Positions 14,382 through 36,730 of a stretch of 64,000 nt of DNA are shown here, piece by piece. Source of the stretch: an uncultured delta proteobacterium. GTDB lineage: Bacteria > Desulfobacterota > Binatia > UBA9968. The position numbers and the translations under genes were made by a program. The notes under the pieces are model-generated. The model was not told the DNA's origin, made no database searches, and was given only the letters and a program-made list of their open reading frames with translations. The first letter of the stretch is position 1. The number at the start of each line of letters is the position of its first letter. Location of the stretch: the NCBI GenBank assembly GCA_963745035.1, contig CAVUVW010000013.1:1760001-1824000 (forward strand), given 5' to 3'.

Positions 14382-14432
14382 GGGAAACTTCCATGTTTCG
14401 AGAATTCTCGAAACGTCGAAATGTGAAGCCAG
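14382..14432. repeat. Conserved palindromic element, copy 1
   Basis: gggaaacttccatGTTTCGAGAATTCTCGAAACgtcgaaatgtgaagccag. Confidence 0.92.
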
Positions 14433-14499
14433 GCACGAGGTGGGAGGCAGCAGGCGCGAGCCGGGAACAATACTCGGGAAGGAACCTTGAACTGGACCT

Positions 14500-14754
14500 T
14501 TACCTGTACACTTCCCGCCGATGTCTTACACGAAAAATCCTCACACGCCTGCGCGCATCATCGATATCGTAGACGACTCGATAATCTCCGATTCGGATGC
14601 GCCAATCATTTCGCGAGCCGGTTAACTTGTGGCAACCGGGTGGGCGTGGATTTTCGGCGAGGGCGTTTATGCGGGAAACGATACGATTGAAGATAGTGTG
14701 AGGCAGCGCTCGAAGATCGCGTTCAGCGGTCCGCTCAATTAGAATCTCATACAC
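14500..14754 (-). CDS. RelE/ParE-family toxin
   Basis: ENPRPPGCHKLTG...WRIRIGDYRVVYDIDD...VRHRREVY. Confidence 0.92.
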   Translation of the reverse strand: MYEILIERTAERDLRALPHTIFNRIVSRINALAENPRPPGCHKLTGSRNDWRIRIGDYRVVYDIDDARRRVRIFRVRHRREVYR

Positions 14755-14953
14755 CCGCAGTGTCCTTCAGAAAGTCGGCAAACTTGCGGAATTTGAGCGG
14801 CCTTTTCCTCATTTCCTTGAGCGTCTTGAGATCCTCCGCATCCTCCGCGCGCTCGAGCAACTCGCGATACTCCTCAATACCGAGAATGACGGCGGTCGGC
14901 CTTCCTCTACGCATTACGATTTCGGGGTCCCTTCTTTTTCGCTTTGCTTTCAT
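14747..14953 (-). CDS. Phd/YefM-like antitoxin
   Basis: IVMRRGRPTAVILGIEEYRELLE; overlaps the toxin start. Confidence 0.8.
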   Translation of the reverse strand: MKAKRKRRDPEIVMRRGRPTAVILGIEEYRELLERAEDAEDLKTLKEMRKRPLKFRKFADFLKDTAGV

Positions 14954-15195
14954 GGTTTTCACCTTGTCTGTTTGGACGACAATATCATCCCCAAAAAGTC
15001 CCTTCAAATGGACGCCGTGACGCGCGACTCGTGAAGCCGAGACGTGATCGTGGTCTGATACCGTGAATCGTGGTCGTGAGTCGGATAATTGCCGTGAGCG
15101 TACCTTCCAAAGGATAAAGGCAAAAGGATAAGGGATAAATCCCGTGAGCGTGGGGAAAAAGGCCGTGTTCGTGGTTGTGGACGCGCTAGAGCAGT

Positions 15196-15273
15196 CTAGC
15201 GTGATCGTGTTCGTGGTTCGCTTCCCAAGGACTGGGACAGCCGCGAAAGCATCTGAACCACCCGGTCATAGTC
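15196..15273 (-). pseudogene. 3'-end-only fragment of four-helix-bundle subfamily A (same tail as copy A1)
   Basis: Nearly identical to 13789-13866 (DYDRVVQMLSRLSQSLGSEPRTRSR). Confidence 0.85.
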
Positions 15274-15309
15274 AGCGAAAACCGCCGTGAGCGTGATTCG
15301 TGATCGTGT

Positions 15310-15663
15310 CTACCGATTGAGACTCTGCGAGAGCTTGGACAGCATTTGGATGACCCGATCATAGCCCGAGCGCAATTCCTGATACGTTTCGTTAGAGATA
15401 TAATTTAGATCGCGGGCGACAAGCAGCTGATAGCAGACTTCGCCCGCGGAGCCGCGCGCGATACCCACAAATTGGCGATACTCCTTGGTACCGAGTCTCA
15501 TAGCGCCTTCCATAAGGTTCATGCCGACTGAGATTGCCGCTCGCCGCATCTGATCGACTAGGCTATACATTTCCTCTCTCGGGAAGCTTTTCGTAACCGA
15601 ATAAATCTTCAGAGCCAGCTGATGAGCGAGTTTGAAAACATCCAAGTCTTCCACACTGTTCAT
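15310..15663 (-). CDS. Four-helix-bundle protein, subfamily A copy 2
   Basis: Near-identical to A1 over the first ~87 codons, different C-terminal helix; CGTG tract downstream and CACG tract (15683-15760) upstream. Confidence 0.92.
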   Translation of the reverse strand: MNSVEDLDVFKLAHQLALKIYSVTKSFPREEMYSLVDQMRRAAISVGMNLMEGAMRLGTKEYRQFVGIARGSAGEVCYQLLVARDLNYISNETYQELRSGYDRVIQMLSKLSQSLNR

Positions 15664-15887
15664 CCCCGTCCCTCCGAGAAGCCACGATCACGAACCACGA
15701 CCACGTTCTCCCCCACCCCCTCCTGACCACGAGCACGTATCACGAACACGTTGGCACGGCTACTGCGTGCCCGTTCAAATCGTTCAAACGCTGCGCTCAT
15801 CCGAAACCTGAAACCCGTTCCAATTGTTCCAACGGTTCCATCGCTTCGCTACGTTCCAAACGTTTAAATCCCAAAGACTAAGAGAGA

Positions 15888-15940
15888 GGGGAACTTCGAC
15901 GTTTCGAGAATTCTCGAAACGTCGAAATGTTAAGTCAGGC
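15888..15940. repeat. Conserved palindromic element, copy 2 (perfect 32-bp palindrome 15895-15926)
   Basis: TTCGACGTTTCGAGAATTCTCGAAACGTCGAA. Confidence 0.93.
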
Positions 15941-16049: not shown

Positions 16050-16056
16050 AAACCGT

Positions 16057-17205: not shown

Positions 17206-17414
17206 AAAGGATAAGGGATAAAGGCCGTGAGCGTGATTCGTGATCGTGAAAATGCCAGAGACGTGAGCGTGATCGGACAACTAACGCGATCGTGTTCCCA
17301 GCCGGAAAAACGCCGTGATCGTGTCTTGTCCTTCAGTGAGAACGACCGCGCTCGTGCTGGTGGACGTGATTCGTCCCGCTATGTGGAGCGTGATCGAGCT
17401 CAACAGACGCCCGC

Positions 17415-17457
17415 GGGGAAACTTCCACGTTTCGAGAATTCTCGAAACGTCGAAATG
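17415..17457. repeat. Conserved palindromic element, copy 3
   Basis: ACGTTTCGAGAATTCTCGAAACGT at 17427-17450; the ArsR gene stop follows at 17463. Confidence 0.93.
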
Positions 17458-17462
17458 AGGCC

Positions 17463-17763
17463 CTAGCCTAGACGGCTCGTCGAGTTGATGATCTTTTCAA
17501 GTGCCTTCAACAGCCCCCGAGTCTCGCTGCGGTGCTTGAGCCAGTAGCGAACGTTCTTCCCGTCGCTGTCGTATCTCACGATATCGGCGGCGCGCAGCTT
17601 GGCCAGATGTGTGCTGATGGTCTGCACCGAGCGGCCGGCAAGCTTGGCCAGAGCGCTCGGCGTCATCGCGTCCGCCCGCATCGAGCAAAACAACGAGCTG
17701 GTAAATCACCGGATTCCCAAGTAAACGGCAAAGCCGCGATTCGCGATAGTCGGGTTCGTCCAT
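17463..17763 (-). CDS. ArsR-like winged-HTH regulator (one frameshift, possibly a sequencing error)
   Basis: Two overlapping ORFs join to LCRLLGNP...TPSALAKLAGRSVQTISTHLAKLRAADIV. Confidence 0.78.
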
Positions 17764-17800
17764 CGCCAGCCATCTACGGCAAAACCGCCTCCGCTGTCAA

Positions 17801-17845
17801 TTCCACGTTTCGAGAATTCCCGAAACGTCGAAATGTGAAGTCAGG
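17801..17845. repeat. Conserved palindromic element, copy 4
   Basis: ttccacgtttcgagaattcccgaaacgtcgaaatgtgaagtcagg. Confidence 0.9.
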
Positions 17846-18077: not shown

Positions 18078-18290
18078 CTATTTGCCGGCGGTTAACTCTG
18101 CTTCAAAAGGCCGCTCCTTGCGAAAACGGCTAACACCGAGAATGCTGAACCCGACTACTTGTCCATGTTCGTCGACTCGCTCCATCAACGCGTCGTGCGC
18201 AGTTTCGCGCATGAACCCCGGGGCATCGCTGAACCGTACCTCCAAAAAATCCCCTTCCGGATCGAACCAAACTTTCAGTTTTTCGGCCAT
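18078..18290 (-). CDS. DUF2283-like putative antitoxin
   Basis: KVWFDPEGDFLEVRFS...VDEHGQVVGFSI. Confidence 0.8.
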   Translation of the reverse strand: MAEKLKVWFDPEGDFLEVRFSDAPGFMRETAHDALMERVDEHGQVVGFSILGVSRFRKERPFEAELTAGK

Positions 18291-18586
18291 AGGATTTCTC
18301 CTGCTTTAACCGTATCCGTGATATATGCTGTAATCACGAAAGCGTCGTCCGGTAGATACTTTACCACTACACACAACCATTTCCCACCGACTTGGGTTTG
18401 CCTGTAAAACTCGTAGAAAAGCTTTACGTCGTCATCGGAGCGCGATCGCCGCACCTCGCTCGGTGTTTGCAATACTCGCTCAAGCTCATCCGCCATTACC
18501 GCCATTTCTACATGTTCCAAGATATGCGCGAGTCGCTCGTCAGTCAGCCGAACAGAAGTGCCAAAGCAATCTCGGATCACTTTCAT
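18275..18586 (-). CDS. DUF4258/RelE-like putative toxin
   Basis: VRLTDERLAHILEH...KWLCVVVKY...FVITAY; paired with DUF2283. Confidence 0.72.
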   Translation of the reverse strand: MKVIRDCFGTSVRLTDERLAHILEHVEMAVMADELERVLQTPSEVRRSRSDDDVKLFYEFYRQTQVGGKWLCVVVKYLPDDAFVITAYITDTVKAGEILWPKN

Positions 18587-18706
18587 AGACGGAAGATACG
18601 GCAGTGTGCCATGCGACGCAATAAAGTCGAGTGTGAAGGCCCATAGTTTTGAACTGGCCCGACGTGGCCGACAGAAGACCCGTAACTATGTCGTCGAAAT
18701 GAGAAA

Positions 18707-18967
18707 CTACTTCCCCAAACCCAGGCGCCGACGCAGTTCCCTGGCCGAGATGGCGCCTTCCTTTTTTACACGGCCTCTGGAAGTCTCTATGATCTTGAGA
18801 AACTTGCGGTTGGTGCTCAGCGCTAGAGTCTCTTCATCCGCGTTCCGTATCGGAATAACGGCCGCGAATGGTTTTCCCGCCTTGTAGACGACGACCGGAG
18901 CTTTTCTTGCTTTTGTGGCGTATTCGGAAAGGGGTCCTGACGCCTTTTTGAACTCTATTTTTGTCAT
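18707..18967 (-). CDS. Phd/YefM-like antitoxin
   Basis: PVVVYKAGKPFAAVIPI. Confidence 0.78.
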   Translation of the reverse strand: MTKIEFKKASGPLSEYATKARKAPVVVYKAGKPFAAVIPIRNADEETLALSTNRKFLKIIETSRGRVKKEGAISARELRRRLGLGK

Positions 18968-19263
18968 AGCTTTATTATTTCGCCGCCGATCCGTACGCGA
19001 TCTCTCTCTTTTACTCCGATTGCCAGAACGGTAACTGTCGGCCGGGGTTCGTCGCTGACTTCATAATACACTCTGAGATCGCCAATGCGAAGTTCCCAAG
19101 GAGCCACTGGATTCAGTCTCATCGGCTTTCTATTTCGGGTCTCCACGGTCGGCTGATTGGCCAGCTGCCGGTCCACAGCATCGACTACGCTTCGTTGCTG
19201 TCGAGTAGCAAGCCGCCGGAGATGGTCCTCTGCTTCCGGAGAATATTCAATGACGTAGGCCAA
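18964..19263 (-). CDS. RelE/ParE-family toxin
   Basis: IEYSPEAEDHL...RNRKPMR...WELRIGDLRVYYEV. Confidence 0.88.
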   Translation of the reverse strand: MAYVIEYSPEAEDHLRRLATRQQRSVVDAVDRQLANQPTVETRNRKPMRLNPVAPWELRIGDLRVYYEVSDEPRPTVTVLAIGVKERDRVRIGGEIIKL

Positions 19264-19628
19264 GCTATTGTCCTTGCGCCTTTTGGTGTCGCGTGATTTC
19301 GTCCGTAAAAACAATCAAGGCGTTGGTCGGATCGGATGACCGCGACAAAGTTCTTCGCAATTTAATGGATTGGACGGGTTTTGGGCAAGTGGGTTTGCAA
19401 AACGTGGGGCCGGAGTCGTGGAGCAACAGGCGTGAGGTGCGAAAGAAAGATGCCTGCGCGTGGTTCGTGATCGTGTCCGAGCCCGGGTCCGTTCAAGGCA
19501 TTCAAAGCGAACCCGGACGGGGCCTCCTTTAGTCGGACAGGGTAGCCCCGTTCCAGCCGTTCAACCGCTTCGCTCCGTTGAAAACGTTGCAGAGCAATGC
19601 GGTTCGAAGGTGCAAGGTAAGACAAGAC

Positions 19629-19647
19629 GGGAAACTTCCACGTTTTG
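19629..19647. repeat. Left half of the palindromic element fused to an AAGGATA tract
   Basis: gggaaacttccacgttttg|ttaaggataaagg. Confidence 0.7.
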
Positions 19648-19819
19648 TTAAGGATAAAGGCAGAAGGATAAAGGATGAGGCGATAAAAACCGTGAGCGTG
19701 GCGGAAAAGGCCGTGTTCGTGGATCGTGGGCGCGCTCGGACCAGTTGCTAAGCGGTTCAGTGGCCGACCGTTACTGTTAAAGACAGAGAACTCATACGTC
19801 GGAAAACGGCGTTGATCAG

Positions 19820-19859
19820 ACTTCCACCCTTCGAGAATTCTCGAAACGTCGAAATGTGA
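19820..19859. repeat. Conserved palindromic element, copy 5
   Basis: acttccacccttcgagaattctcgaaacgtcgaaatgtga. Confidence 0.88.
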
Positions 19860-20034
19860 CAGCCACGGCACGAGGTGGGAGGCAGCAGGCAATAGTCAGA
19901 AGAGGAACAACTGGAACTCGGGCCGTACGCGGCTCTTCTTCGACCAGAAAGCCTGTCTTTCCTTTCTTTGCCTCCGGCGGCGCCATTGAGCGGGCAAATC
20001 GCATCGATCTACGGGCTCGGATCGAATGCTTTGA

Positions 20035-20073
20035 GGGGGAATTGCATGTTTTGAGAATTCTCAAAACGTCAAA
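20035..20073. repeat. Palindromic element, variant copy 6
   Basis: GTTTTGAGAATTCTCAAAAC (compensatory C>T and G>A). Confidence 0.85.
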
Positions 20074-20255
20074 GGGTCAATCCACCTTTGACGATGCGTC
20101 TATGACTCTCTCCAGCGTTTTGAGAAGCCCTTTCATTTCTCCTTTATGCTTGAGCCAGTCATTTTTAAGGCTAAAGGCGAAAGGATAAAGGATAAGCGGC
20201 TCTAAAAATGATAATGCCAAAAGTATAAAAGGATAAACACGACCTGCCGCCCGAA

Positions 20256-20621
20256 TTACCGCTTTTGACTTTGCGCTTTGGCTTTTATATTCCGAACAAT
20301 GCTTACAAAAATTCCTTTCAGCTCTCCCGTCTCTTTCATTATTGCAGCTAATCTTTCGCTAGCGACAAATCCAGAATCGGCGAGTAATTCCAACCAGTAT
20401 TCGCTTTCTTCCAGCTCCTGTAAACATCCTTCGATTTTGCTGATAAAGTCGGGGTTGGATTTGGCTCGCGACGCCTCGCGATACTGCGCACCGACCGAGG
20501 TGGCGGATCGCAACAGCTGTCGCCCCATGATCTGTGTTTCCGTTTTTTTCGGCAATTCGGCATAAAGCCGGATCACGGAAAGCGCGTAGTCCTTCGTTCT
20601 GCCCTTGAGATCGCTCTTCAT
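20256..20621 (-). CDS. Four-helix-bundle protein, subfamily B copy 1
   Basis: DLKGRTKDYALSVIRL...QLLRSATSVGAQYREA.RAKS..DFISK...ELEESEYWLELL; AAGGATA tract 20167-20236 and TATCCTT tract 20638-20668. Confidence 0.92.
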   Translation of the reverse strand: MKSDLKGRTKDYALSVIRLYAELPKKTETQIMGRQLLRSATSVGAQYREASRAKSNPDFISKIEGCLQELEESEYWLELLADSGFVASERLAAIMKETGELKGIFVSIVRNIKAKAQSQKR

Positions 20622-20780
20622 AAAAGGATAAGGCCCTCATCCTTTATCCTTTCGCCCTTATCCTTTTCAAATGCTGATACACGATCGGATTGCCGAGCAA
20701 GCGACAGAGCCGCGACTCCCGATAGCGCTTCTCGTCCATGGCCGGCGATCTAATCCCCACCCCATTCCCCTGTCAAGACG

Positions 20781-20822
20781 CACGTTTTGAGAATTCTCAA
20801 AAGGTCAAAATGGGAAGTCAGG
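20781..20822. repeat. Palindromic element, variant copy 7
   Basis: cacgttttgagaattctcaaaaggtcaaaatgggaagtcagg; a left half-site follows at 20882-20896. Confidence 0.83.
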
Positions 20823-21077
20823 CAAGCGGCGACAGTAGGAAGCGCCGGTTCAATGTTCAAGAGTTCAAGGTCAGATTCGGAGGGGAACTTCCACGTCGGA
20901 AGCTCGAACAAAGGCCGCGCATGATTTCTATATTCACTCGGATCGCGCGTTCACTATCGAGCGGCGTCGAATTGTCGAAACGCTGGAAGGACTTTTTGAT
21001 TGCTGCTCGGAGATACCGTCTTAGGGCGAGGAGGGGAGCATGAAGACTCCCCTCCTGCTGTTATTACGGACGGGCGA

Positions 21078-21497
21078 TTACTTCTTTTCTTTGGTCGTCG
21101 GTTCTTTGCTCATGGGTTCCGTCTTCTCTTTCTTCGTTTCCGTGCCCATGGCCGTCGTTTTGCCGACTCCGAGCTTCCCGGCTGTCTGGTTATCCAATTG
21201 TCCGGTCGCCTTCAGGCCGCTCGCCTGTTGGAATTCTTTCAGCGCCGCCCGGGTTTTGGGGCCCATTCTGCCGTCGATCGGCCCGGGATCGTTGCCCTTG
21301 GCCTTCAAAGCCTCTTGAACCTCTCTGTAGTCTGTCCTGCCGGTCGTCATCTTTCCCATCTCCGGCTTCTTGTCCATTTCCCCCATCTTTTCCGCTTTAG
21401 CCGGCGGCGCTTGCTTTTCCTCGGCCGCTCTCGCGGATACACCCAAGGTCAACAAAAGCGCGCTAGCCAATACGGTTCTACCAATTGCAGTAAACAT
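21078..21497 (-). CDS. Secreted peptidoglycan-binding domain protein
   Basis: Signal peptide; VQEALKAKG.DPGPIDGRMGPKTRAALKEFQ...GL..TGQLD. Confidence 0.88.
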   Translation of the reverse strand: MFTAIGRTVLASALLLTLGVSARAAEEKQAPPAKAEKMGEMDKKPEMGKMTTGRTDYREVQEALKAKGNDPGPIDGRMGPKTRAALKEFQQASGLKATGQLDNQTAGKLGVGKTTAMGTETKKEKTEPMSKEPTTKEKK

Positions 21498-21580
21498 AGA
21501 TTCGTCCTCCTTTTACCTGCGGTCCAATCTAATGATCCGCGGCTGAGTTGGTTGTCTAATAGTGGACCGTGTTGAAAAGA

Positions 21581-21622
21581 AATTTAGACCTGAGGCGCCG
21601 ATTCGGCGCCTCAGGTCTAATT
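21581..21622. terminator. Strong hairpin, probable terminator of 21644-22201
   Basis: ttagacctgaggcgccg-att-cggcgcctcaggtctaa. Confidence 0.7.
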
Positions 21623-21643
21623 AGGCTCTAGGAAATCTCGCGT

Positions 21644-22201
21644 CTAACTGGGATTGACGGCGAGCTGGGAAATCTTCAACGCGACGCCAAGCGGCAAGGG
21701 ATTATCGCCGGTGCTCAGAGCCGTGCCCAATCTTTCGATCTCCCACGACGAAACCTTTTCAGCGGCCGGCGCTTCGGTTACGGCGGCCTGCAACTTATCG
21801 GCCTGGGGCAGTTTGATCAGGTATTTGACGTTGTTCCCGTCGCTGAGTGTCACCGAGAGAACCATCTGTTTGCCTTCTTCGGTCGCCAAGGTTTGCAACC
21901 CGGCAATGCGACTTGAAAGGCTGGTCTTGCTCACGGTATCGGCGTAGAGCCAGATGAAGGCGCCGACAAAGGAAGCCATCACCAGCCAGCCGTACTGGCC
22001 GACCCGTTTTTGGCGCTTTATCGACCGGCTTCTCTGTTGATCGAAGAATTTGCGGTAGGATTCTTTTTCCGCCGTCACTTTCTTGACTGGATCCTGATCC
22101 GTGGAACTCGGCGGTTGATTGAAACCGAGGTCCAAGCTGTTCAGTATCATGCCCAGGATCACCAACCCTAGCGGAATGGCGATTAAAAATAGAGGATTCA
22201 T
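21644..22201 (-). CDS. Hypothetical membrane protein (two TM segments)
   Basis: 185-aa ORF with AAGGAG RBS and two hydrophobic stretches. Confidence 0.7.
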   Translation of the reverse strand: MNPLFLIAIPLGLVILGMILNSLDLGFNQPPSSTDQDPVKKVTAEKESYRKFFDQQRSRSIKRQKRVGQYGWLVMASFVGAFIWLYADTVSKTSLSSRIAGLQTLATEEGKQMVLSVTLSDGNNVKYLIKLPQADKLQAAVTEAPAAEKVSSWEIERLGTALSTGDNPLPLGVALKISQLAVNPS

Positions 22202-22702
22202 AATTCTCCTTTTGCAGGCTTTTTATAGCCTTTGGATATTGGAAGAGGAGTCTGATCCGGGCATACGTTCGTTTGTCGAACCCGAACGGGAAGTCATTGC
22301 CACCGTTGGTTATGTCGTGTCGACGGGTCTTTACCTCTTGCGCGCCATTACAGCTCTCGCGTTTAGCATAAGATAACCATCCGCGGCGGGAATAAATGTC
22401 TAATAGTGGACAAGTCGAAAAGAAATAAAAAGTAGGCGTGAGGGTGAGCAACCGATGAAGCGAACCCGTTCAAATCGTTCAAGCCGTTCAACCGCTACGC
22501 TCCGTTCAAGACGTAACGGACTAATGCCGGTTCAACGGTTCAATCGTTCAAAAGTTCAACGTCGATCAGGCAATAGGCAACGGGCAACAGTAAAGAGAAG
22601 GCCTTCAACCGGTCCCCGGAACCTGCGCCTGAGTCCAATCAAAGGGTTCAAACCGTTCCGGGTTAGCACCCGCGCTCAAGGTCCGACGTTCCAATTCTCC
22701 CA

Positions 22703-22745
22703 GGGGGAACTTCCACGTTTCGAGAATTCTCGAAACGTCGAAATG
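22703..22745. repeat. Conserved palindromic element, copy 8
   Basis: gggggaacttccACGTTTCGAGAATTCTCGAAACGTcgaaatg; ORF6N stop at 22754. Confidence 0.93.
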
Positions 22746-22753
22746 ACAACGGG

Positions 22754-23290
22754 CTAGCGGCCGCCGTAGGCGGCGCCTTTTTCTTCTACTAGAAATCCGA
22801 TTTTTCTCTTCTTCGGCTGCGGCGGCGTCATGAGTTGGCGGATCGCGTCAAACACAACCTTGAACTGAGCGTCGTATTTTTTCTCCAGGTCAGCCAACTT
22901 CCGGGCGAGCTGGCTATTCGACGCCAGCATCTGCCGGAGCCGAACGAAGGCGCGCATAATCTCGATATTCACCTGTATTGCACGTCGACTGTTCAGCACT
23001 GACGAAAGCATCGCGACGCCTTGCTCGGTGAAGGCATACGGCGCGTATCGCCTACCTCCGCGACCCTTGTTTGAGGTCGCAAATTGCGACCTCAAAGAGG
23101 CGACTTCTTCTGCGGTCAGCTGAAACATGAAATCTTCTGGAAACCGGGCTCGGTTACGCCTGACCTGCTCGTTGAGCCGCTTGGTCGTCACACCATATAG
23201 GGCAGCGAGATGAACATCGATCAAGACCTTATGACCACGAATCAGCAAAATCGATCGTTCGATGCTCTTAGTCGGAGATGTTGTTGCCAT
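22754..23290 (-). CDS. ORF6N (KilA-N-like) domain DNA-binding protein
   Basis: [35 protein letters not shown]...[18 protein letters not shown]. Confidence 0.92.
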
Positions 23291-23435
23291 TTGGACTCAC
23301 TCCATTTGACAAGTCCGGTGAAACGTCAGCGGATCTTATGGGATGGCCGGGTTTGGGACAAGAGGGACGCGAGGGCAGAAGAGACGTGGTCGTGGGGTTT
23401 ACTTAAGGATAAAGGCAAAGGGATAAAGGATAAGT

Positions 23436-23801
23436 TTAACATTTCGAAATTCTTGACTTGGCTTTGGTGTTTACGACGATGCTAACGAATATACCTTCAG
23501 TTCACCGGTTTCTTTTTTAACGGCGGCCAATCTTTCTTCTGGAACAAATCCGGAATCGCCGAGCAATTCCAACCAGTATTCGCTCTCTTCTAATTCCTGC
23601 AATGAGCCTTCGATCTTGCTGATAAAATCGGCGTTGGACTTGGCTCGTGACGCTTCGCGATACTGCGCGCCGACCGAGGTGCCGGATCGTAAGAGCTGTC
23701 GTCCCATGATCTGCGCCTCTGTTCTCTTTCGGCAATTCGGCAAAAAGCCGGATGACCGAAAGTGCATAATCCTTCGTCCTGATTTTCAAGGCGCTATTCA
23801 T
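23436..23801 (-). pseudogene. Four-helix-bundle protein, subfamily B copy 2 (compensating frameshifts, possibly errors)
   Basis: MNSALKIRTKDYALSVIRL + QLLRSGTSVGAQYREA...; AAGGATA tract 23405-23434, TATCCTT tracts 23816-23902. Confidence 0.85.
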
Positions 23802-24015
23802 TATCGCCGTTTGAGCATCCCTTATCCTTTATAATTTCTCCTTTAAAATGGTTCGCCATCGCCGTCGGGGCTTATCCTTTATCCTTCAGCCTTTATCCTT
23901 TCAACTTGTGCCGTGTTCGTGTTCGTGTCGGATAGCTACCGTGAACGTGATTCGAGTCGATGGCGGCTCTGGCAAAACAGCCGTTCAAAACGTCCGAGGA
24001 GTAAAACCAGGACAA

Positions 24016-24058
24016 GGGAACTTCCACGTTTCGGGAATTCTCAAACGAAACGTCGAAA
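24016..24058. repeat. Palindromic element, copy 9 (4-nt insertion)
   Basis: gggaacttccacgtttcgggaattctcaaacgaaacgtcgaaa; antitoxin stop at 24067. Confidence 0.85.
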
Positions 24059-24066
24059 GGTCGCGC

Positions 24067-24294
24067 TCACGCCGCGGTGTACTGACGGACTTCGACCTGA
24101 ATTCCTAACTGGGCGGCTTCAGCCGCGGATCTGAGAAGGCTGGCTGTAATGTTTTCATCAACGTATTCTTCACCGCAATTTGCGCAGACCCGAGCTGGAA
24201 CACCCTTGAAGACCAAAGTGGCTCCGTCTTTGTCCAACGTCACGGTCGCCGTCCCAGCCTTTGTTTCGCCCTTCTTGCAAATCACGCATTTCAT
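24067..24294 (-). CDS. YgiT/MqsA-type zinc-finger antitoxin-like protein
   Basis: MKCVICKKG...VPARVCANCGEEY. Confidence 0.88.
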   Translation of the reverse strand: MKCVICKKGETKAGTATVTLDKDGATLVFKGVPARVCANCGEEYVDENITASLLRSAAEAAQLGIQVEVRQYTAA

Positions 24295-24578
24295 CAAGTC
24301 TTTCTCCTTTTAAAATCCGGTTCCCATTCCTCCGGATCCGGCTCATAGACGGTAATGACGATATTTTCCTGATCATCCAGATTATCAGCGAGGACGACGT
24401 GAATCGGTCGGCGGCCGTTCCATCCGAGAACTAGACGACTCGGATATGGCGTGTCATCAGGATAATCTTCCACCGTTTCTCCCGTAACAATAACATGTCG
24501 AACTTCGGTCTCCGTTATAGTGCGCTGATACATACGTTGAATGGCGTGGACTCGAAAGACCAATCGGTTAAATACCAC
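24294..24578 (-). CDS. DUF4258 putative toxin
   Basis: HAIQRMYQR.I...EDYPDDTPYPSRLVLG...PIHVV...VITVYEPDP. Confidence 0.88.
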   Translation of the reverse strand: MVFNRLVFRVHAIQRMYQRTITETEVRHVIVTGETVEDYPDDTPYPSRLVLGWNGRRPIHVVLADNLDDQENIVITVYEPDPEEWEPDFKRRKT

Positions 24579-24822
24579 GCAAGAACCTCACCTGTTTCCA
24601 TGATTCGTGAGCAGACCGTGACATAGGAGCCCACGGTCTGGATTCGAGTTCATCAAGCCACGTCTCGCGAGCAACGCGAAGGCGGGATGATTTCACCCCA
24701 TAACGATATTCGCCTAACACGATAACGGGCAGATGGATATCGGTGGCTGATTGCTGAAGACAATTGAGCAAGCGTTGGTTTGCGTCGGCAAAATCGGAAA
24801 CAGCGTTGGTATCGAGGATCAC
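24568..24822 (-). pseudogene. PIN/VapC toxin, C-terminally truncated
   Basis: ILDTNAVS...LPVIVLGEYRYG; the second half of the PIN domain is absent. Confidence 0.75.
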
Positions 24823-25085
24823 TTCCACTCCCGGGGATCGATCCTCTCAAATTCCTCATCAATTATTTTTTGGATGCTGCGCGTGTCCGTACGCATGTCC
24901 TCCGATTTAGCGAAAGCTCCATAAAGTTTCATCCATCGAGGCTCGCCCTTCTCTAGCTCTTCGTCGCGACCAATTTTGTCCTCAATGGCTTCAGCAACGA
25001 GTTGTTCTAAGCTAAGGCCCTTCGCGGCCGCCAGGGTTTTGGCACGTTTCAGCGTCTTTTCGGATATCTCGACTGTTGTCTTCAT
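24819..25085 (-). CDS. VapB-like RHH antitoxin
   Basis: MKTTVEISEKTLKRAK..AA..G.SL. Confidence 0.78.
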   Translation of the reverse strand: MKTTVEISEKTLKRAKTLAAAKGLSLEQLVAEAIEDKIGRDEELEKGEPRWMKLYGAFAKSEDMRTDTRSIQKIIDEEFERIDPREWK

Positions 25086-25226
25086 AGATCTTACTCCCAC
25101 ATGACTGAGTCTACTGGATTCGGCGGGTTTCGGGCAAGAGCGTTCTTAAAGGATAAGGGCAAACGGATAAAGGATAAACCGAGAGAAGGGAAAGGGGACC
25201 GGAAAAAATAAGCTCTGAGACCAATC

Positions 25227-25413: not shown

Positions 25414-25466
25414 GGGGAAACTTGCACGTTTCGGGAATTCTCGAAACGTGGAAATGTGAAGTCAGG
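25414..25466. repeat. Palindromic element, copy 10
   Basis: ggggaaacttgcacgtttcgggaattctcgaaacgtggaaatgtgaagtcagg, followed by an AGGCAA tract. Confidence 0.9.
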
Positions 25467-26131: not shown

Positions 26132-26168
26132 CTACCGGTTAAGAGTCTGCGACAGCCTGGAGAGCATC
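26132..26168 (-). pseudogene. Very short 3' remnant of four-helix-bundle subfamily A
   Basis: MLSRLSQTLNR* with an adjacent CGTG tract 26108-26130. Confidence 0.7.
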
Positions 26169-26354: not shown

Positions 26355-26383
26355 ATTCTCGAAACGTCGAAATGTGAAGTCAG
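26355..26383. repeat. Right half of the palindromic element; start of the duplicated TA cassette
   Basis: attctcgaaacgtcgaaatgtgaagtcag; 26355-26982 is nearly identical to 14404-15031. Confidence 0.85.
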
Positions 26384-26450
26384 ACACGAGGTGGGAGGCA
26401 GCAGGCGCGAGCCAGGAACAATACTCGGGAAGGAACCTTGAACTGGACCT

Positions 26451-26904: not shown

Positions 26905-27388
26905 GGTTTTCACCTTGTCTGTTTGGACGACAATATCATCCCCAAAAAGTCCCTTCAAATGGACGCCGTGACGCGCGACTCGAGACGTTTACTTAAGGAT
27001 AAAGGCAAAGGGATAAAGGATAAAAACAAAAAGACGTGAGCGTGGGGAAAGGCCGTGTTCGTGATCGAGGATGTGCTAGAGGAGCAAGCGATGATAGAGC
27101 GCGAAAAGGATAAAGGACTACGACAACCTGAGAGCAAGGGCAAAGGGACCAAGGGCAAAGGGATAAAGGCTCTGAGAGCCAATCTCAAAGTTTAGTTTTC
27201 GCAATCCTTGATTTCGCCTTCGGTGTTCCTGACGATGGCGACGAAGATTCCTTTTAGTTCACCGGTTTCTTTTTTAATCGTGCTCAATTTTTCTTGTGGA
27301 ACGAATCCGGAATCGCCGAGCAATTCCAACCAGTACTCGCTCTCTTCTAATTCCTGCAATGAGCCTTCGATCTTGCTGATGAAATCGG

Positions 27389-29429: not shown

Positions 29430-29597
29430 GTCAGACTTGCCCCGCGATGCCTCGCGATACTGCGCGCCGACCGAGGTGCCGGATCGCAAGAGCTGACGCC
29501 CCATAACCTGCGCTTCTGTTCTTTTCGGTAATTCGGCAAAGAGCCGGATGACCGAAAGTGCATACTCTTTGGTTCTGACTCTTCAGATCGCGATTCA

Positions 29598-30749: not shown

Positions 30750-31850
30750 TCAGGACAACCAAGGATTGAGTGAAACGTGAATGGCATTTTCGCCGGCGAC
30801 TTCCTGGCCGATCAGCCTGAGCGCATAGTCGGCGTCCTTGAGCGGCACCTCGTGGGTGGTGAGCTGCGCCGCCGCCTCGGGCCGGGCCGCGATGATACTC
30901 AGCGCCCGGCGGATGTCGTCGGACTCGTGGCCCCTGACGCCGATCATCGCGATGCCCCGGCTCGCGATCTTGTCCATCTCGAACTCGACGGTCTGATTGG
31001 GCGTCCGGCCGGCCAGCACCACCGTGCCGCCGCGCCGGACCAGATCGACCGTCGCCTCCTGCGCCTTGATGCTGCCGGTGACATCGACGACCACGTCCGC
31101 CAGCTCGGAACCGAGGATGCTTTTGACCTGTTCGACCAGCGGCGCTCTGTCGGAATAGACCACGTGGGTCGCGCCGAGCTCCTGGGCAACGGCTAACCTC
31201 GCCGCGTCGGTTTCCAGTCCGGCGACCACGATCGGCGCCGCGCCGGCGATGGCGGCGGAGAGGACACAGCCGAGGCCCTGCTGGCCTGGGCCGAGAATCA
31301 CGATGGAGTCGCCGGGGCTCAGCGCCGGCACCCGCTGGGCCCATTTGACGCCGTTGGAAACTGCGGTGTAGAGCACCGCCGCTGTCGGCGCCACCCCGGC
31401 GGGCACGGGGTGAAGAATCGAGTTGGGGTGGAGATACATGTACTGCGCGTAGCCGCCCCAGAGGTGCGGCGGATCGGCCATGCTCGCACTGATGCCGTAG
31501 CTCCGCTTGTTGGCGCAGAGCGTGGCGTTGCCGGTGACGCAATAGCGGCAGCGCTGGCAGGTCACCGGCGCTTCGACCGCCACCAGATCGCCCTCCTTGA
31601 GCTTCCACTCAGCGCTCGCTGCTTTGCCGATGGCGGCGATGCGGCCGACCACTTCGTGCCCCATGATGTGCGGCGGGTTCAAATAGGGCCAGTGATCGAG
31701 CTCCTTATAATAATGATAGTCGCTGCCGCAGATGCCGCAGGCTTCCACTTTCAGCACCGCATCGTCCGCGCCCGGATTGGGCACGGCGAACTCGCGCATC
31801 TCGAAGCGGCGCTTGTCGACGATCACGGCGGCCTGGGATTTCTTATCCAT
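30750..31850 (-). CDS. Zinc-dependent alcohol dehydrogenase (MDR family)
   Basis: CGICGSD, GHE, CxxCxxC...C, GPGQQG. Confidence 0.92.
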   Translation of the reverse strand: MDKKSQAAVIVDKRRFEMREFAVPNPGADDAVLKVEACGICGSDYHYYKELDHWPYLNPPHIMGHEVVGRIAAIGKAASAEWKLKEGDLVAVEAPVTCQRCRYCVTGNATLCANKRSYGISASMADPPHLWGGYAQYMYLHPNSILHPVPAGVAPTAAVLYTAVSNGVKWAQRVPALSPGDSIVILGPGQQGLGCVLSAAIAGAAPIVVAGLETDAARLAVAQELGATHVVYSDRAPLVEQVKSILGSELADVVVDVTGSIKAQEATVDLVRRGGTVVLAGRTPNQTVEFEMDKIASRGIAMIGVRGHESDDIRRALSIIAARPEAAAQLTTHEVPLKDADYALRLIGQEVAGENAIHVSLNPWLS

Positions 31851-31894
31851 CGGCGGGCTCCTCGCGGTGCGTGTAGTGTTCAATGCGACCGGTT

Positions 31895-32996
31895 TCAGTC
31901 GCGCCAGGGGTTGATCGCGACGTGGATCGCCTCCTCGCCCGGGATCTCCTGGCCGATCAGCCTGAGGGCGAGATCGGCTTCCTTGAGCGACACCTCGTGG
32001 GTGAGCAGCTTCGACAGTTGATTCCGGCGCGCGGCGATCACGGCCAGCGATTTTCTCACATCTTCCGACTCGTGGGCGCGCACGCCGATCATCTTGATGC
32101 CGCGGCTGGCGAGCTTGTCCATGACGAAGGGAATTTTCTTTTTGGGCGTGCGCCCGCCGAGCACCACCGTGCCGCCGCGCCGGACCAGATCGACCGCGGC
32201 CGCCTGGGCGGCCGTGCTGCCGGTGACATCGACGACCACGTCGGCCATCTCCGGACCGAGGATTTTCTTGACCTGATCGGCCAGCGGCTCGCGGTCGGAA
32301 AAGATCGTGTGCGTCGCGCCCAGCGCCGTGGCCACTTCCAAACGCTTGGCGTCGCGCTCCAGGCCGGCGACGATAATGGGATTGGCTCCGGTCATGGAAC
32401 TCGCCAGCACGCAACCCAACCCCTGCTGGCCCGGCCCCAGGATGACGATGGCATCGCCCAGACTGAGCGCGGGAATGCGCTGGGCCCACTTGACGCCGTT
32501 GGCGATCGGACTGAACAGCACCGCTTCGTGTTCGGAGATTCCGGCGGGCACGACGTGCAGGATCGCGTCGGGATGGAGATACATGTACTGGGAGTAGCCG
32601 CCCCACAAATACGGCGGCTCCTTCATGCTGGCGCTCATGCCGTAGCTGCGCTTGGTCGAGCAGAGCGAAGAGTTGCCGGTGGTGCAGTAGCGGCAGCGGT
32701 GGCAGGTGATCGCCGACTCGACGATGACCAGATCACCCTCCTTCACGTTCCAATGCCTGGCGGCTTGCGGCGCTGATGTCGTTGATGCGCCCGACCACCT
32801 CGTGGCCGAGGATCTGCGGCGGCGACTGGTACGGCCAGTGGTGCCCCTCGGTATAATAGTGATAGTCGCTGCCGCAAATGCCGCACAGCTCGACCTTCAG
32901 GATCGCGTCCGCCTCGGCCGGCTTGGGCACGGCGAAATGGCGCATCTCGATCTTGCGTCTGTCGGTCACGACCGCGGTCAGGGATTGCTCTGCCAT
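31895..32996 (-). CDS. Zinc-dependent alcohol dehydrogenase, tandem paralogue (one frameshift near 32750)
   Basis: Same motifs split over two frames. Confidence 0.85.
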
Positions 32997-33280
32997 GAAG
33001 TGCTCCGTTCAACGTGAGTGGGGCTTTAAAGAATAGCGGTTCGGCAAGGTGCGAAGATTACCGAGCGACTCGGCCCGGCTTCATCCATATCGCGGCGCGC
33101 CCAAGCGATGCAAGGATGCCTGCCCTGCTGCGACGGCTCGCAGAGAGCGGTGTTGCCGCTAATGAGACCAACTCTCCTCAACGTCTCTGAAGCGAAACCC
33201 GTTCAAATCGTTCAAGCCGTTCAAGCGTAGACTTGTTCAACGGTTCAATTGTTCAAAAGTTCAACGTCAGATTCTCGGAG

Positions 33281-33332
33281 GGGGAACTTCCACGTTTCGA
33301 GAATTCTCGAAACGTCGAAATGTGAAGTCAGG
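33281..33332. repeat. Palindromic element, copy 11 (consensus), with CGTTCAA tract 33199-33267 and AGGCA tract after
   Basis: ggggaacttccacgtttcgagaattctcgaaacgtcgaaatgtgaagtcagg. Confidence 0.94.
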
Positions 33333-33380: not shown

Positions 33381-33701
33381 TTATTCTACGCGCAACAATT
33401 GGCCCGGCCTGGCCTTGGGAATCGTGGCGAGCAAATTTGGAACTAGTGGAAGAATATCTTCGAGAGCATTGCTCGGCGCGATAAGCAGGATGATGCCGAG
33501 CCGAGACTGGGAGAGGTTTTGCTGAAATTGGAGGTTGCGATCCGCGGTCACCAGAACTTCAAAGCCTGCGTCAGCAGCCACACGAAGCAGCTCGCCATTC
33601 TTGAATCCAGCCCATCCGCGCTGCTGGACGGTGCTTACGTTGTGACCGCCGATTTCTCCGGCAAGATGACGCGGCAATTGCTCATCGAGTAGCACGCGCA
33701 T
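33381..33701 (-). CDS. DUF5615 PIN-like toxin
   Basis: MRVLLDEQLP...GWAG.KNGELL...LVTADRNL.FQQN. Confidence 0.88.
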   Translation of the reverse strand: MRVLLDEQLPRHLAGEIGGHNVSTVQQRGWAGFKNGELLRVAADAGFEVLVTADRNLQFQQNLSQSRLGIILLIAPSNALEDILPLVPNLLATIPKARPGQLLRVE

Positions 33702-33909
33702 CGGCCGTCAAAACCTCGTGAGCGTTCTCAAGAACCCTAATCGCTTGTTCCTTCGACACCGATGGAAACGCGTCGAGAAACTCATCGATGTCATGGCCAC
33801 GCTCGAGATAGTCGAAAAGGTTACGCAGCGGTACTCGCGTACCGATGAAAACGGGAGTTCCACCCAATATCTCCGGGTCGCTATGCACGACCGAAGGACG
33901 GTTGGTCAT
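33682..33909 (-). CDS. DUF433 antitoxin
   Basis: DPEILGGTPVFIGTRVP. Confidence 0.9.
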   Translation of the reverse strand: MTNRPSVVHSDPEILGGTPVFIGTRVPLRNLFDYLERGHDIDEFLDAFPSVSKEQAIRVLENAHEVLTADARATR

Positions 33910-34104
33910 GAACACCTCCTCTCCAAAAATACGTCCCTGCCGGTGCGTTTAATATATCCTAGGCTGAATGGCCGTCCAAATGGGGGAAAGGGGCCGTAGT
34001 CATTTCGGAAACTGCCGTGAGAGCGTAATCGTGGTCCGACAAAGAACGTGATCGTGGTCGGGAAAATGCCGTGTTCGTGTTCGAGCAACTACCGTGATCG
34101 TGGG

Positions 34105-34457
34105 TTACTTCCTAGCGAACTGGGAGAGACGAGAAAGCATTTGAATGACGCGATCGTAGCCGCTCCTTAATTCTTGATAGGTTTCGTTAGAGGTGTAGTT
34201 TAGATCACGAGCCAGAAGGAGCTGGTAGCAGACCTCCCCTGCCGATCCGCGGGCTATGCCGACGAACTGGCGGTATTCCTTTGTGCCGAGCCTCATGGCG
34301 CCCTCCATCAGGTTCATACCCACAGACCGGCAGCTCGTCTGGTTTGATCCCCCAAACTGAACAATTCTTCTTTTGGAAATGCTTTGGTGGCCGCGTATGT
34401 TTTCAACGCTAATTGGTGGGCGAGTTTAAATACGTCGAGATCCTCTACGTTGTTCAT
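34105..34457 (-). pseudogene. Four-helix-bundle subfamily A copy (one frameshift)
   Basis: MNNVEDLDVFKLAHQ + GMNLMEGAMRLGTKEY; CGTG tract 34016-34102, CACG tract 34476-34553. Confidence 0.85.
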
Positions 34458-34719
34458 CCTGTCCCTCCGAGAAGCGACGATCACGAAACATGACCACGTT
34501 CTCCTCATGCCCTCCTCGAGGACGAGCACGTATCACGAACACGTTTCTCACGGCTACTCCCCCGTCTCTGGCGGGATCGGCGTCCGACAAACAACGTGAT
34601 CGGTTCGTGATCCGTGGTCGTGATCGTATGCGGAAAAGAACCCGTGGACGGCGTTATCGATATTGAGCGGGCTCTTGAACCGACGGGGTTGCGACCGCCG
34701 GCGCCCATCATGGCGCTCG

Positions 34720-35415
34720 TCAAGGTTGCGTGAAAGCGGTCGGTCCGATGAACGACTCGGCGCTGGAGCGCGTATCGTCCGAATCGATCGCAAGCGAGAG
34801 AGCGCTAGGTTTGTCCGGCGCCTCGCCATAGATCTTACGGAAGTCTTCGACGACATTGCGGCGCTCGGTGATCCATTTGCCGAGTTCGCCGGAGCCCGAG
34901 CGCAGGACGACATAAGTCACCGTGGAGGTCTTCTCGCTCTTGCAGATCGTGCCAGCCGGTGCCGTCGAATCCCAAACGTAGCCGATGATGCGCGAGCGCA
35001 CCGCCTCCGGGGCGCGCAGCCAGGCGACGTAAACCTGAGCGGCCTGGTCGTCGGTCGACTTCTGGCAGGCATTGCCGCCGGTGGGAAGCGTGACGACCTT
35101 CCATCTCCACTCGAGGATTGGCGTCTCTTTGAGATCGACCGAAGCTTTGAGGTCGCGACTGATTGTAGAAGTCTCACCCTTGCTCCTCAGGTGCAGGACC
35201 GGCTGACCGTTGTCCGACGCGATCTCAAGGTCGTAGGCGGGCTTTCCCCAGGTCTGCTCCTTCCAGTCGCCCGGGATGGTCCGCGTACCGAGCGGATACG
35301 AGCGCCAGTCCTCGACGACGACGCGATCGGCCGCCCAGGCGGTGGCAAGCACGGCGCAGGCGACGGCTAAAGCGGCTCGGCGCGCACGAGTCGAATTCAT
35401 GGCTTTGTGGCTCAT
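34720..35415 (-). CDS. DUF3047 domain exported protein
   Basis: TPILEWRWKV, DDQAAQVYV, YVWDS, WITERRNV.EDF, DSDDT. Confidence 0.85.
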   Translation of the reverse strand: MSHKAMNSTRARRAALAVACAVLATAWAADRVVVEDWRSYPLGTRTIPGDWKEQTWGKPAYDLEIASDNGQPVLHLRSKGETSTISRDLKASVDLKETPILEWRWKVVTLPTGGNACQKSTDDQAAQVYVAWLRAPEAVRSRIIGYVWDSTAPAGTICKSEKTSTVTYVVLRSGSGELGKWITERRNVVEDFRKIYGEAPDKPSALSLAIDSDDTRSSAESFIGPTAFTQP

Positions 35416-35627
35416 CGTTCTGTCCGCTGCCCCAGACACCCAGCATTTCCTGGAGGCAAGGACGGGTCAAGGCCAGAAAAGAAAATTTCTACGTCAAGTC
35501 TTTACTGTCCAGCCTACTGCACCGGGAACGACACTTTTATAGGGCTGATTCACGCCAAACCGTGATCGTGCTCGTGATGCGTGGTCGTCGACACTCTAAA
35601 GGCAAGAGGCAGAAGGATAGGGATAGA

Positions 35628-35867
35628 CTACAACTTCGGATTTTTCGATTTAGCTTTGGTGTTTCGGACGATACTGACGAATATTCCTTTCAGTTCGCCG
35701 GTCTCCTTTCTGACGGCGGCCAATTTCTCTTCCGGAAAAAATCCAGATTCGCCGAGCAATTCCAACCAGTATTCGGTCTCCTCTAATTCCTGCAAGGAGC
35801 CTTCCATCTTGCTGATGAAATCGGCGTTAGATTTGGCTCGTGACGCCTCACGATACTGCGCGCCGAC
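35628..35867 (-). pseudogene. 5'-truncated four-helix-bundle subfamily B fragment
   Basis: VGAQYREASRAKSNADFISKMEGSLQELEETEYW...NPKL*; AAGG tract 35598-35626. Confidence 0.85.
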
Positions 35868-35922
35868 AGAAGTTGTTTAACCATTGTCTTTAATCTCGTT
35901 GAATCCATCATTCGGGCGATTC

Positions 35923-36483
35923 TCACGCTTTTCCGTTCTTGGGGATGAACTTCAGCGCGACGCCATTGTTGCACCAGCGTTTTCCGGTTGGCTGAGGCCC
36001 GTCATCGAAAATGTGGCCATGGTGGCCGGCGCAACGGGCGCAGTGATACTCGGTGCGCGGCAGGACGAGCTTGAAATCCGTGCTGGTGCCGAATACTCCC
36101 GGAATGGTCGTGAAAAAGCTCGGCCAACCTGTGCCGCTCTCGTATTTCATAGCAGAAGTAAACAGCGGCAAATCACAACCGGCGCATGCGAATACACCGG
36201 GGCGCTTCTCGTTGTTTAGCGGGCTGGAGCCGGGGCGTTCGGTCCCCTCTTCGCGCAGGATGTTGAACTGCGCGGCGCCTAAACGCTTGCGCCATTCCTC
36301 CTTCGATAGCTTTAGAGGCTCGTTGGGCAGTGGCACTTTGATGCCGTCGGCCAGCAGCGCCTTCCAGTTCTTCTGCATGTTTTCGACTTCCTTCATCGAG
36401 GGCTGCGCGGCGAAGCCGATACCTCTGAAAACATTCCACATACCTGCAGCAAGCAAACCTTGTAATATTTGCCGGCGTGTCAT
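35923..36483 (-). CDS. msrB: Peptide-methionine (R)-S-oxide reductase with Tat-like leader
   Basis: GTERP, KYESGTGWPSF, GHIFDDGP.PTGKRWCNNG. Confidence 0.95.
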   Translation of the reverse strand: MTRRQILQGLLAAGMWNVFRGIGFAAQPSMKEVENMQKNWKALLADGIKVPLPNEPLKLSKEEWRKRLGAAQFNILREEGTERPGSSPLNNEKRPGVFACAGCDLPLFTSAMKYESGTGWPSFFTTIPGVFGTSTDFKLVLPRTEYHCARCAGHHGHIFDDGPQPTGKRWCNNGVALKFIPKNGKA

Positions 36484-36705
36484 AAGCGGCCGCCTTTCAT
36501 ACAGTCCTTGGACCGGTCCGACGTGCTTTTACGTCGCAATCATATCGCTAAAAGATTTGTAGGCAAATAGTATCGATAACGGCAGACGTTGCAGAGCAAC
36601 GCGGTTCAAAGTTCAATTTTCAATTAATACCGAAGTCGGTTCCAAAGGTTCCAACCGTTTCAAACGTTCCAAACGTCAACCGGGTTCAAAGTTCAACGTC
36701 GCACT

Positions 36706-36730
36706 GGGAACTTCCACGTTTCGAGAATTC
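36706..36730. repeat. Left half of the palindromic element (ends at the centre GAATTC)
   Basis: gggaacttccacgtttcgagaattc|cccttaag; GTTC(C/A)A tract 36603-36697. Confidence 0.85.

Follow-up and report, generated by a model that had tools for sequence, protein, structure and literature searches.

The window analyzed here is a stretch of 64,000 nucleotides from an uncultured delta proteobacterium of the Binatia (UBA9968; GenBank assembly GCA_963745035.1, contig CAVUVW010000013.1, positions 1,760,001 to 1,824,000 of the forward strand). It carries a 23-kb array of gene modules, each ended by a copy of a palindrome of about 44 bp, here termed P, and this array is part of a larger island of defence and mobile genes. 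We tentatively read P, with somewhat less than even confidence, as a lineage-specific module boundary and as the putative joint for the excision and insertion of modules. The coupling of P to stop codons, its co-orientation, the recurrence of gene-plus-P units and the independence of its left flank make a module-boundary site the best reading of the sequence comparisons. The initial annotation of this DNA had proposed a platform for gene capture; a modular array with recurring units was indeed found, but no excision or insertion event was observed and no enzyme could be tied to P.

Modules bounded by the palindrome

Ten P-rich loci of six relatives were compared with the window, with all sequences cut at P. 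The array was present in its entirety in no relative; pieces of it were found at 66-93% identity on many contigs and in differing order, and at least three intervals of the window recurred in other species as P-bounded or P-adjacent modules with different neighbours. The interval holding the ArsR-like gene (329 nt) was 90-95% covered by P-to-P intervals of the genomes G045, G015 and G043, and the neighbours on either side bore no relation to those in the window. Interval 20793-22726 corresponded to two separate P-bounded intervals in G018 and to one in G012, the gene of no family at 21587-22552 formed a P-bounded unit in both of these genomes, and the interval with the HicB-like gene (25437-26355) was found again in G012 and G045. 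The array is accordingly modular, as had been supposed, and its P-bounded modules occur in other species in other orders.

The position of P relative to genes was assessed for 182 copies in 68 loci of other genomes. An open reading frame (ORF) of at least 55 aa ended 10-150 nt from the GAAATG side of P in 119 cases and from the other side in 70, and the ORFs ending at the GAAATG side had a median length of 99 aa. P-to-P intervals, which ranged from 171 to 6899 nt, were co-oriented in 52 of 55 cases. Within the window a minus-strand gene ends a few to about 80 nt to the right of each P; six of the stop codons that the initial annotation had placed close to the right side of the element were confirmed (14500, 17463, 18707, 22754, 24067 and 33381), while the one at 25525 matched no listed ORF.

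With respect to the joint itself, homology to relatives started at column 1 of P, 21-24 nt left of its centre, in seven comparisons, and four of five sequence classes of the left flank, which is the start of the next module, were paired with both subtypes of P described below. Together with the rarity of hybrids between left and right arms, these observations point to a joint at the GGGGAAC end. Judged from these alignments, P stays with the gene on its right, which is an attC-like polarity. A crossover at the centre of P was considered and rejected, since partial copies end at differing points on direct reading and recombinants of left-arm and right-arm subtype were rare (3 of 105 copies).

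In the mechanism that we propose, P would serve as the joint at which modules are excised and inserted, and would be recognized by a sequence-specific protein. Its active form is probably a hairpin of the cargo-antisense strand, and exchange would take place at the GGGGAAC end with the polarity of attC. The candidate enzymes, in order of preference, would be a Y1 (HUH) transposase of the RAYT (REP-associated tyrosine transposase)/TIRYT type acting in trans, an unknown factor, and the integron integrase (IntI) encoded elsewhere in the genome.

Structure and distribution of the palindrome

The consensus of P was derived from 50 full copies of the 57 found, the 7 with indels having been dropped. 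It reads GGGGAAC TTCC ACGTTTCGAG AATT CTCGAAACGT CGAAATG, about 44 nt in all, and forms a perfect 10-bp stem with a 4-nt loop and weaker outer pairing around it; the outer stem is imperfect, with a C.C mismatch or a bulged base beside the stem. Read as words, P consists of four 8-mers, two direct and two inverted, arranged about AATT. Two subtypes were distinguished, A with the words CTTCC, TTTCGAG, CTCGAAA and GTCGAAA, and B with CTTGC, TTTTGAG, CTCAAAA and GTCAAAA. Among the 105 copies listed from 17 of 31 genomes of the genus, 61 were read as entirely A, 22 entirely B and 22 mixed, with three to four of the 8-mers changing in coordination and the match between stem arms broken in only 9 copies. 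The core of P was approximately 90-100% identical between species, as against 72-92% for shared cargo.

Across the 50 aligned copies 92.1% of cells were paired, and at one stem pair 35 copies had CG, 14 had UA and one had UG. One-sided changes of the inner stem were compatible with G.T pairing 24 times on the plus strand of P, which is antisense to the cargo, and 6 times on the cargo strand; the copies are mutually related, and neither this 24:6 bias nor the covariation can be taken as independent counts, so that as evidence of folding the bias is a hint from sequence. It indicates that the hairpin, if it matters, would fold in DNA or in antisense RNA rather than in the mRNA of the cargo. As DNA the hairpin was predicted at -12 to -14 kcal/mol (z -2.6 to -3.8). 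A scan of promoters and terminators gave sites no commoner than in shuffled sequence. A folded single-stranded DNA or RNA hairpin had been suggested as the recombination site; stem covariation and strand bias fit a folded strand, but no recombination at P was seen.

P occurs far more often than expected by chance. A 25-mer with up to 3 mismatches hit 11 places of the window (18 matches, counting both strands), and 100 dinucleotide-preserving shuffles yielded no hit. A repeat search of the window returned a 57-nt family with 11 copies, and a 9-copy family which is the left part of the former. An nhmmer profile of the 44-nt core matched 13 places at E<=0.01, on the plus strand only; the remnant at 19629 was matched only at E 0.65, and those at 18690-18702 and 20882-20896 were recognized by direct reading. 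All 16 positions given in the initial annotation thus hold copies (11 full and 5 partial) in one orientation, spaced 220-6948 nt apart.

In the whole 7.43-Mb assembly the profile matched 20 places at E<=0.01, of which 17 lie in a 96-kb island (C13:1,700,938-1,796,731). The anticipated clustering in one orientation was therefore observed for the window, but single copies also occur elsewhere, and four copies to the left of the window run opposite to those within it, giving two opposed arms. An explanation of the opposed arms by a replication origin or terminus was rejected, since C13 has a negative GC skew throughout the stretch from 0.5 to 1.97 Mb. Among relatives, 16 of 24 further genomes from the same genus carried a 24-nt core of P with up to 3 mismatches, as against none of 16 genomes from two other families of the order; matches per genome ranged from 0 to 27. 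An exact degenerate 29-mer of P matched 68 stretches in a collection of species representatives, nearly all of them titled, for example, Candidatus Binatia or Deltaproteobacteria metagenome-assembled genome (MAG). On these sequence matches P is lineage-specific, confined to one genus of Binatia-type MAGs. Viral contigs and plasmids gave no match, Rfam gave none at the gathering score or at E<=10, and among the papers listed by the literature searches none described such an element in Binatia. Counts that include the genome G005, and the alignment of RAYT orthologs that includes it, rest partly on an unpublished genome.

Candidate enzymes and competing explanations

Y1 transposase genes of the RAYT/TIRYT type are the candidate partner, by neighbourhood only. 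One such gene lies in the window between the two P arms (1015..1905, minus strand). Its product scored 84.8 bits against the NCBI model of REP-associated tyrosine transposases (cut-off 80), contains the HUH motif, and has a C-terminal part with a weak likeness to Bac_DnaA_C (E 0.12). A DnaA-C-like C-terminal extension is described for RAYT subclass 2.1 in the relevant passages of Quentin et al. (2018, PMC6006769), which report no REP partner for this subclass. On several contigs, relatives of the window gene lie 0.1-12 kb from P arrays, and RAYT-like hits were obtained at 9 of 78 distinct P loci, which together span 589 kb (L121 was dropped as it is the same contig as L061). RAYT-type Y1 genes are enriched near P arrays. 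In ten P arrays, 75 ORFs of at least 140 aa matched 77 families, and Y1_Tnp was the sole transposase or recombinase family among the 25 listed. Copies of P upstream of RAYT-like genes were antisense in 20 of 25 cases and two downstream copies were sense, with two fragmentary second hits not counted; this pattern may merely reflect the general co-orientation of genes in these islands. In the genus as a whole the RAYT/TIRYT family had up to 26 matches per genome, and a sequence search of the PDB with the window protein gave a chance hit only.

The Y1 genes near P possess inverted repeats of their own. The sequence GGGGTCAG lies 57 nt upstream of the window gene and is conserved, homology beginning there in three of four orthologs (one of them from the unpublished G005). 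At this distance of 57 nt upstream of the gene the conserved motif was noted as GGGGTCAGAC (1962-1969), and ortholog homology begins exactly there. A Y1 paralog, G002:C700, has perfect inverted repeats on both sides. TIRtrons, in the passages of Di Nocera et al. (2013, PMC3733652) that define them, are Y1 genes (TIRYT) between inverted repeats with a GGGGWSAS motif; the inverted repeats next to P, which start with GGGGTCAG, fit this motif, and the Y1 genes that carry them are accordingly TIRtrons. In the REP/REPIN-RAYT systems treated in the relevant passages of PMC5581495 the repeat directly flanks the RAYT gene and the flanking 16-mers are abundant. No P was found within 1.5 kb of the window RAYT gene or of its 11 orthologs and paralogs, except at G002:C700, where it lies 60 nt outside the terminal inverted repeat. 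The search for an enzyme family that co-occurs with the element therefore yielded a partial answer, in that RAYT-type Y1 genes are enriched nearby but have their own inverted repeats, the link to P being one of neighbourhood.

A number of observations weigh against excision and insertion at P. For the Y1 genes, P lies 60-650 nt outside the GGGGTCAG-type inverted repeats, the commonest 16-mer of the RAYT flanks occurs four times and none is abundant (a negative REPIN test), and an ortholog of 70% is present in G004, where P was not found. For P itself, single copies stand far from the island (C13:805895 and C14:775888), which does not suit a strict platform, and in one MAG copies are scattered over a 3.57-Mb contig, so that P is not limited to a single array in each genome. 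The window junction 21581/21587 is without the P that is present there in G012 and G018. Homologous exchange between 44-bp repeats would yield the same module pattern, and the relatedness of the copies noted above counts on the same side.

The strain variants point the same way. A 1052-nt contig of metagenome run X2 joins 19665 to 26190 (sides of 225 and 827 nt, 0-1 mismatches), which indicates that some strains are without 19666-26189, a segment of 6.5 kb with eight P copies. The two sides meet within a 243-nt repeat (19650-19890 / 26174-26406, 90% identical) rather than between P copies. This deletion is the one well-supported strain variant, in contigs that were mostly a few hundred bases to approximately 1.7 kb long and ended at repeats; most other joints had 21-31 nt on the shorter side and were not used, including two from the centre of P (22729 to 26108). 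At P itself we saw neither an excision product nor a circle or an empty site. The variation of cargo among strains that the initial annotation had proposed to look for was seen in one solid variant, which has its breakpoints in another repeat.

These observations leave room for P to be a REP-like selfish or structural repeat in a hypervariable island, in which shuffling would result from homologous recombination, deletion and transfer and P would have no role in gene capture. We regard this main rival as rather unlikely, though to be taken seriously. REPs (repetitive extragenic palindromes), in the passages of PMC3733652 that describe them, are short extragenic palindromes after gene ends, and P is likewise a short, imperfect extragenic palindrome so placed. 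The isolated copies and the scattered copies of the other MAG fit such a repeat, as do the enrichment of RAYT-class genes nearby, the X2 deletion between other repeats with no event seen at P, and the junction at 21581/21587. However, P has few copies, 17 of its 20 places being clustered in 96 kb, its intervals are mostly co-oriented (52 of 55) instead of forming inverted doublets, a RAYT gene is never directly flanked by P, and P is kept at the same place of the same cargo across species. The same passages assign to REP superfamilies an unpaired GTAG or CGTC tag at one end; this tag is absent from P, where the 8-bp stem foot reads CCAC and CGAC in the consensus.

A more specific form of the module-boundary reading is doubtful but worth stating: P arrays might be an analogue of integrons of independent origin, in which a 44-nt hairpin would be the site of cassette capture and reshuffling. 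The enzyme would not be IntI but most plausibly a Y1 (HUH) transposase of the TIRYT/RAYT class that acts in trans on the cargo-antisense strand.

P could alternatively be an operator or insulator in double-stranded DNA for a dimer-of-dimers helix-turn-helix (HTH) protein, for example an ArsR-like one, or an RNA element that ends or protects transcripts; we consider this improbable. The symmetry of the four 8-mers and their coordinated subtype changes would suit an operator, and four genomes have an ArsR module in which the -35-like hexamer TTGACAG directly adjoins P, ahead of the HTH gene. ArsR-like orthologs of at least 74% identity were found within P arrays of five genomes, and the predicted hairpin is stable. 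The tight distance, however, is that from P to the upstream stop codon, whereas the distance to the start codon downstream is not kept. Searches of two P-rich genomes, G005 and G023, gave no ArsR-like gene, and G012, G024 and G017 had only homologs of 43-54%; an ArsR-like protein as the universal partner of P was rejected on account of the two P-rich genomes. As to an RNA element, a T-run follows the hairpin on neither strand, and wobble-compatible changes are commoner on the strand that is antisense to the mRNA of the cargo.

The least probable of the four explanations, to which we give very little credence, is that P is a non-canonical attC, in which case the array would be a CALIN (a cluster of attC sites without an integron integrase) served in trans by the IntI on contig C6. 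That protein (G000:C6:42134-43036, minus strand) scored 445 bits against the NCBI curated cut-off of 265, with no repeat or cassette array beside it. P follows the 3' ends of co-oriented, cassette-like ORFs as attC does; its co-orientation, joint polarity and imperfect outer stem are also attC-like, and it is the antisense ('bottom') strand that the strand bias, itself a hint, would favour. The outer boxes of attC are R'' (RYYYAAC) and R' (GTTRRRY), which are complementary. These boxes are absent from the 50-copy consensus of P, in which the GGGGAAC end has no GTT partner opposite (CGAAATG). The intI genes of relatives adjoin ordinary attC sites of about 80 nt (GCCTAAC...GTTAGGC), unrelated to P. 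On the contigs examined, P arrays were not found beside intI, apart from one copy 19 kb from intI in G005, and the number of P copies did not track IntI: G018 had 24 P matches and no IntI hit (80% completeness), while G006 and G014 had an intact IntI and 0 or 1 P. The genome also has canonical attC-like sites, at three scattered positions (C13:880211-880300, C23:86739-86822 and C13:1956493-1956564). By boxes and by sequence the element is not a canonical attC, as the initial annotation had held, and its statement that the window contains no IntI extends to the whole 1.97-Mb C13, on which neither an integron integrase nor another tyrosine recombinase was detected.

The element is not a CRISPR either, as had also been stated, since the spacing is irregular and the intervals are occupied by genes whose protein products match Pfam. 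A dif/Xer-like site was set aside, P bearing what we take to be no likeness to one. With regard to the end of a MITE or IS, the partial copies break off at differing points, and no match was obtained in Rfam, plasmids or viral contigs.

Features of the window and relation to known systems

All copies of P in the window lie on the plus strand. Full copies 1 (14382..14425, continued to about 14455 by a heptamer-rich extension) and 2 (15888..15930) were found by 25-mer, repeat search and profile, and copy 3 (17416..17458), with the stop of the ArsR-like gene 5 nt rightward, by 25-mer, ORF list and profile. Copy 4 (17797..17837; profile and alignment) has CTGTCAA in place of the GGGGAAC end, which reads TTGACAG on the gene strand. 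The profile identified further full copies at 19818..19858, 20036..20077 (subtype B; TTTTGAG/CTCAAAA/GTCAAA), 20774..20813 (also subtype B), 22704..22745 (with the stop of the ORF6N gene at 22754 from the ORF list), 24016..24061 (with a 4-nt insertion in the right arm), 25416..25458 and 33281..33324. Partial copies comprise a right end only (18690..18702) and a left end only (20882..20896), both from direct reading, a left end fused to a heptamer repeat (19629..19647; weak profile match and direct reading), a right half (26355..26376; profile) and a left half (36706..36731; profile and direct reading).

The cargo between these copies is mostly on the minus strand. By Pfam matches it includes a ParE toxin (14500-14754) with a Phd/YefM antitoxin (14747-15007; pair at 14500..15007), duplicated at 26451-26958 within a segment (26355-26985) that is a 98% duplicate of 14404-15034; a DUF2283/DUF4258 pair with a ParE pair (18078..19314); an ORF6N-domain gene (22754..23290); MqsA-like, DUF4258, PIN and DUF6364 genes (24067..25100); and a DUF5615/PIN-like and DUF433 pair (33381..33915). 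The ArsR-like HTH gene (17463..17693) occupies a 378-bp P-to-P module, which is P-to-P in three other species as well, and a PG_binding_1 gene with the gene of no family (21078..22451) make up two separate P-bounded modules in G018. Also present are a HicB-like gene, a Zeta-toxin-like kinase and, on the other strand, a DUF4143 ATPase, and among the larger genes are NMT1, two ADH, DUF3047 and MsrB. The array contains nine 23S_rRNA_IVP four-helix-bundle genes or fragments, accounting for 12 of the 18 whole-genome matches of this family: 13789..14163 (minus strand), 15310-15663, 20256-20621, 23471-23767, approximately 25239-25358, 27213-27389 with 29430-29576 (split by an intron), 34105-34529 (frameshifted), 35634-35873 and 36766-37165.

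The intron is of group II (27389-29433, minus strand; RF02005 76 bits, RF00029 46 bits, with a maturase-domain ORF). Position 27388 was joined to 29429 in contigs of three DNA runs, which indicates that an intron-less allele or paralog exists. To the left of the array are defence-island genes (3947-7264 and 9496-13191, minus strand) for RadC, an N6/N4 DNA methylase, an SF1 helicase and a 1105-aa STAND NTPase with a PRTase-CE domain, together with an IS3-family element (8050-9203). Tandem duplications were observed for zinc-ADH genes (73% identical) and for a second pair (68%), at 30759-32989 and 45621-47525.

Two other repeats were recorded. Tandem arrays of a 9-mer, (GTTCAANNC)n, provide the most abundant 16-mers of the genome, with 279 arrays compared with 16 in a reversed-sequence control. 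Those in the window lie at 14274-14333, 15817-15876, 19550-19600, 22468-22527, 26004-26042, 33201-33225, 36639-36676 and 41291-41341. They flank IVP genes, and in relatives they also occur just upstream of intI genes. Such an array lay within 350 nt of the GGGGAAC side in 40 of 247 P copies, in the same orientation in 39 of the 40; as an obligatory partner of P the arrays were rejected, since they adjoin only these 40. Heptamer-periodic tracts of AAGGATA/AAGGCAA occur downstream of IVP genes and upstream of the RAYT gene (15103-15155, 17206-17231, 19644-19702, 20161-20219, 23399-23457, 25143-25201, 26168-26226, 26989-27047 and 2334-2398), CAGGCAN heptamers occur in the extension to the right of many P copies, and the tract sequence AGGCAACAGGCAACAG has 38 occurrences in the genome.

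To our knowledge, gene-cassette arrays are known almost only from integrons. If P is a module joint, cassette architecture can arise without IntI and attC, in an abundant uncultured soil lineage, and a second type of site would delimit and reshuffle toxin-antitoxin and defence modules. Should a Y1 enzyme act on it, subclass 2.1 RAYTs, which have no known DNA partner, would gain a substrate and a role, and a defined 44-nt substrate would make the targets of REP-less RAYT/TIRYT enzymes directly testable. Even as a REP-like repeat, P marks hypervariable accessory islands in Binatia genomes.

P lacks the tags of REP superfamilies and the boxes of attC, yet works partly like both. Like REP/REPIN-RAYT systems and TIRtrons, as characterized in the relevant passages of PMC3733652 and PMC6006769, P is a lineage-specific extragenic palindrome downstream of genes with coexisting subtypes, and RAYT-class Y1 genes lie near it whose C-terminal extension is weakly DnaA-C-like, as in subclass 2.1. 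It differs in being untagged, in having about 20 copies per genome rather than hundreds, in being clustered and co-oriented (52 of 55 neighbouring pairs) rather than arranged in the inverted doublets of REPINs and BIMEs, in not being the repeat that flanks the Y1 genes, and in remaining attached to particular cargo genes.

Short palindromes also bound discrete modules, often of toxin-antitoxin genes and in varying combinations, in the pdif arrays of Acinetobacter plasmids and in the dRS3/NIME arrays of Neisseria. The pdif sites are XerC/XerD sites of alternating orientation, and dRS3 is of the CGTC class; P, which is co-oriented, fits neither.

The closest likeness is to integron arrays and CALINs. 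In both, small and mostly promoterless modules rich in toxin-antitoxin genes are each ended by a co-oriented, imperfect palindrome straight after the stop codon, modules are reshuffled among genomes, and the joint is at that palindrome end which is nearer the next module; the signal of folding, for P a hint, is likewise on the strand antisense to the cargo. In contrast to attC, P is without R'' and R' boxes, is just 44 nt long and has a perfect 10-bp stem with a 4-nt loop; it is unlike the attC sites that flank IntI in the same genus, and IntI is neither near it nor tracks it in presence.

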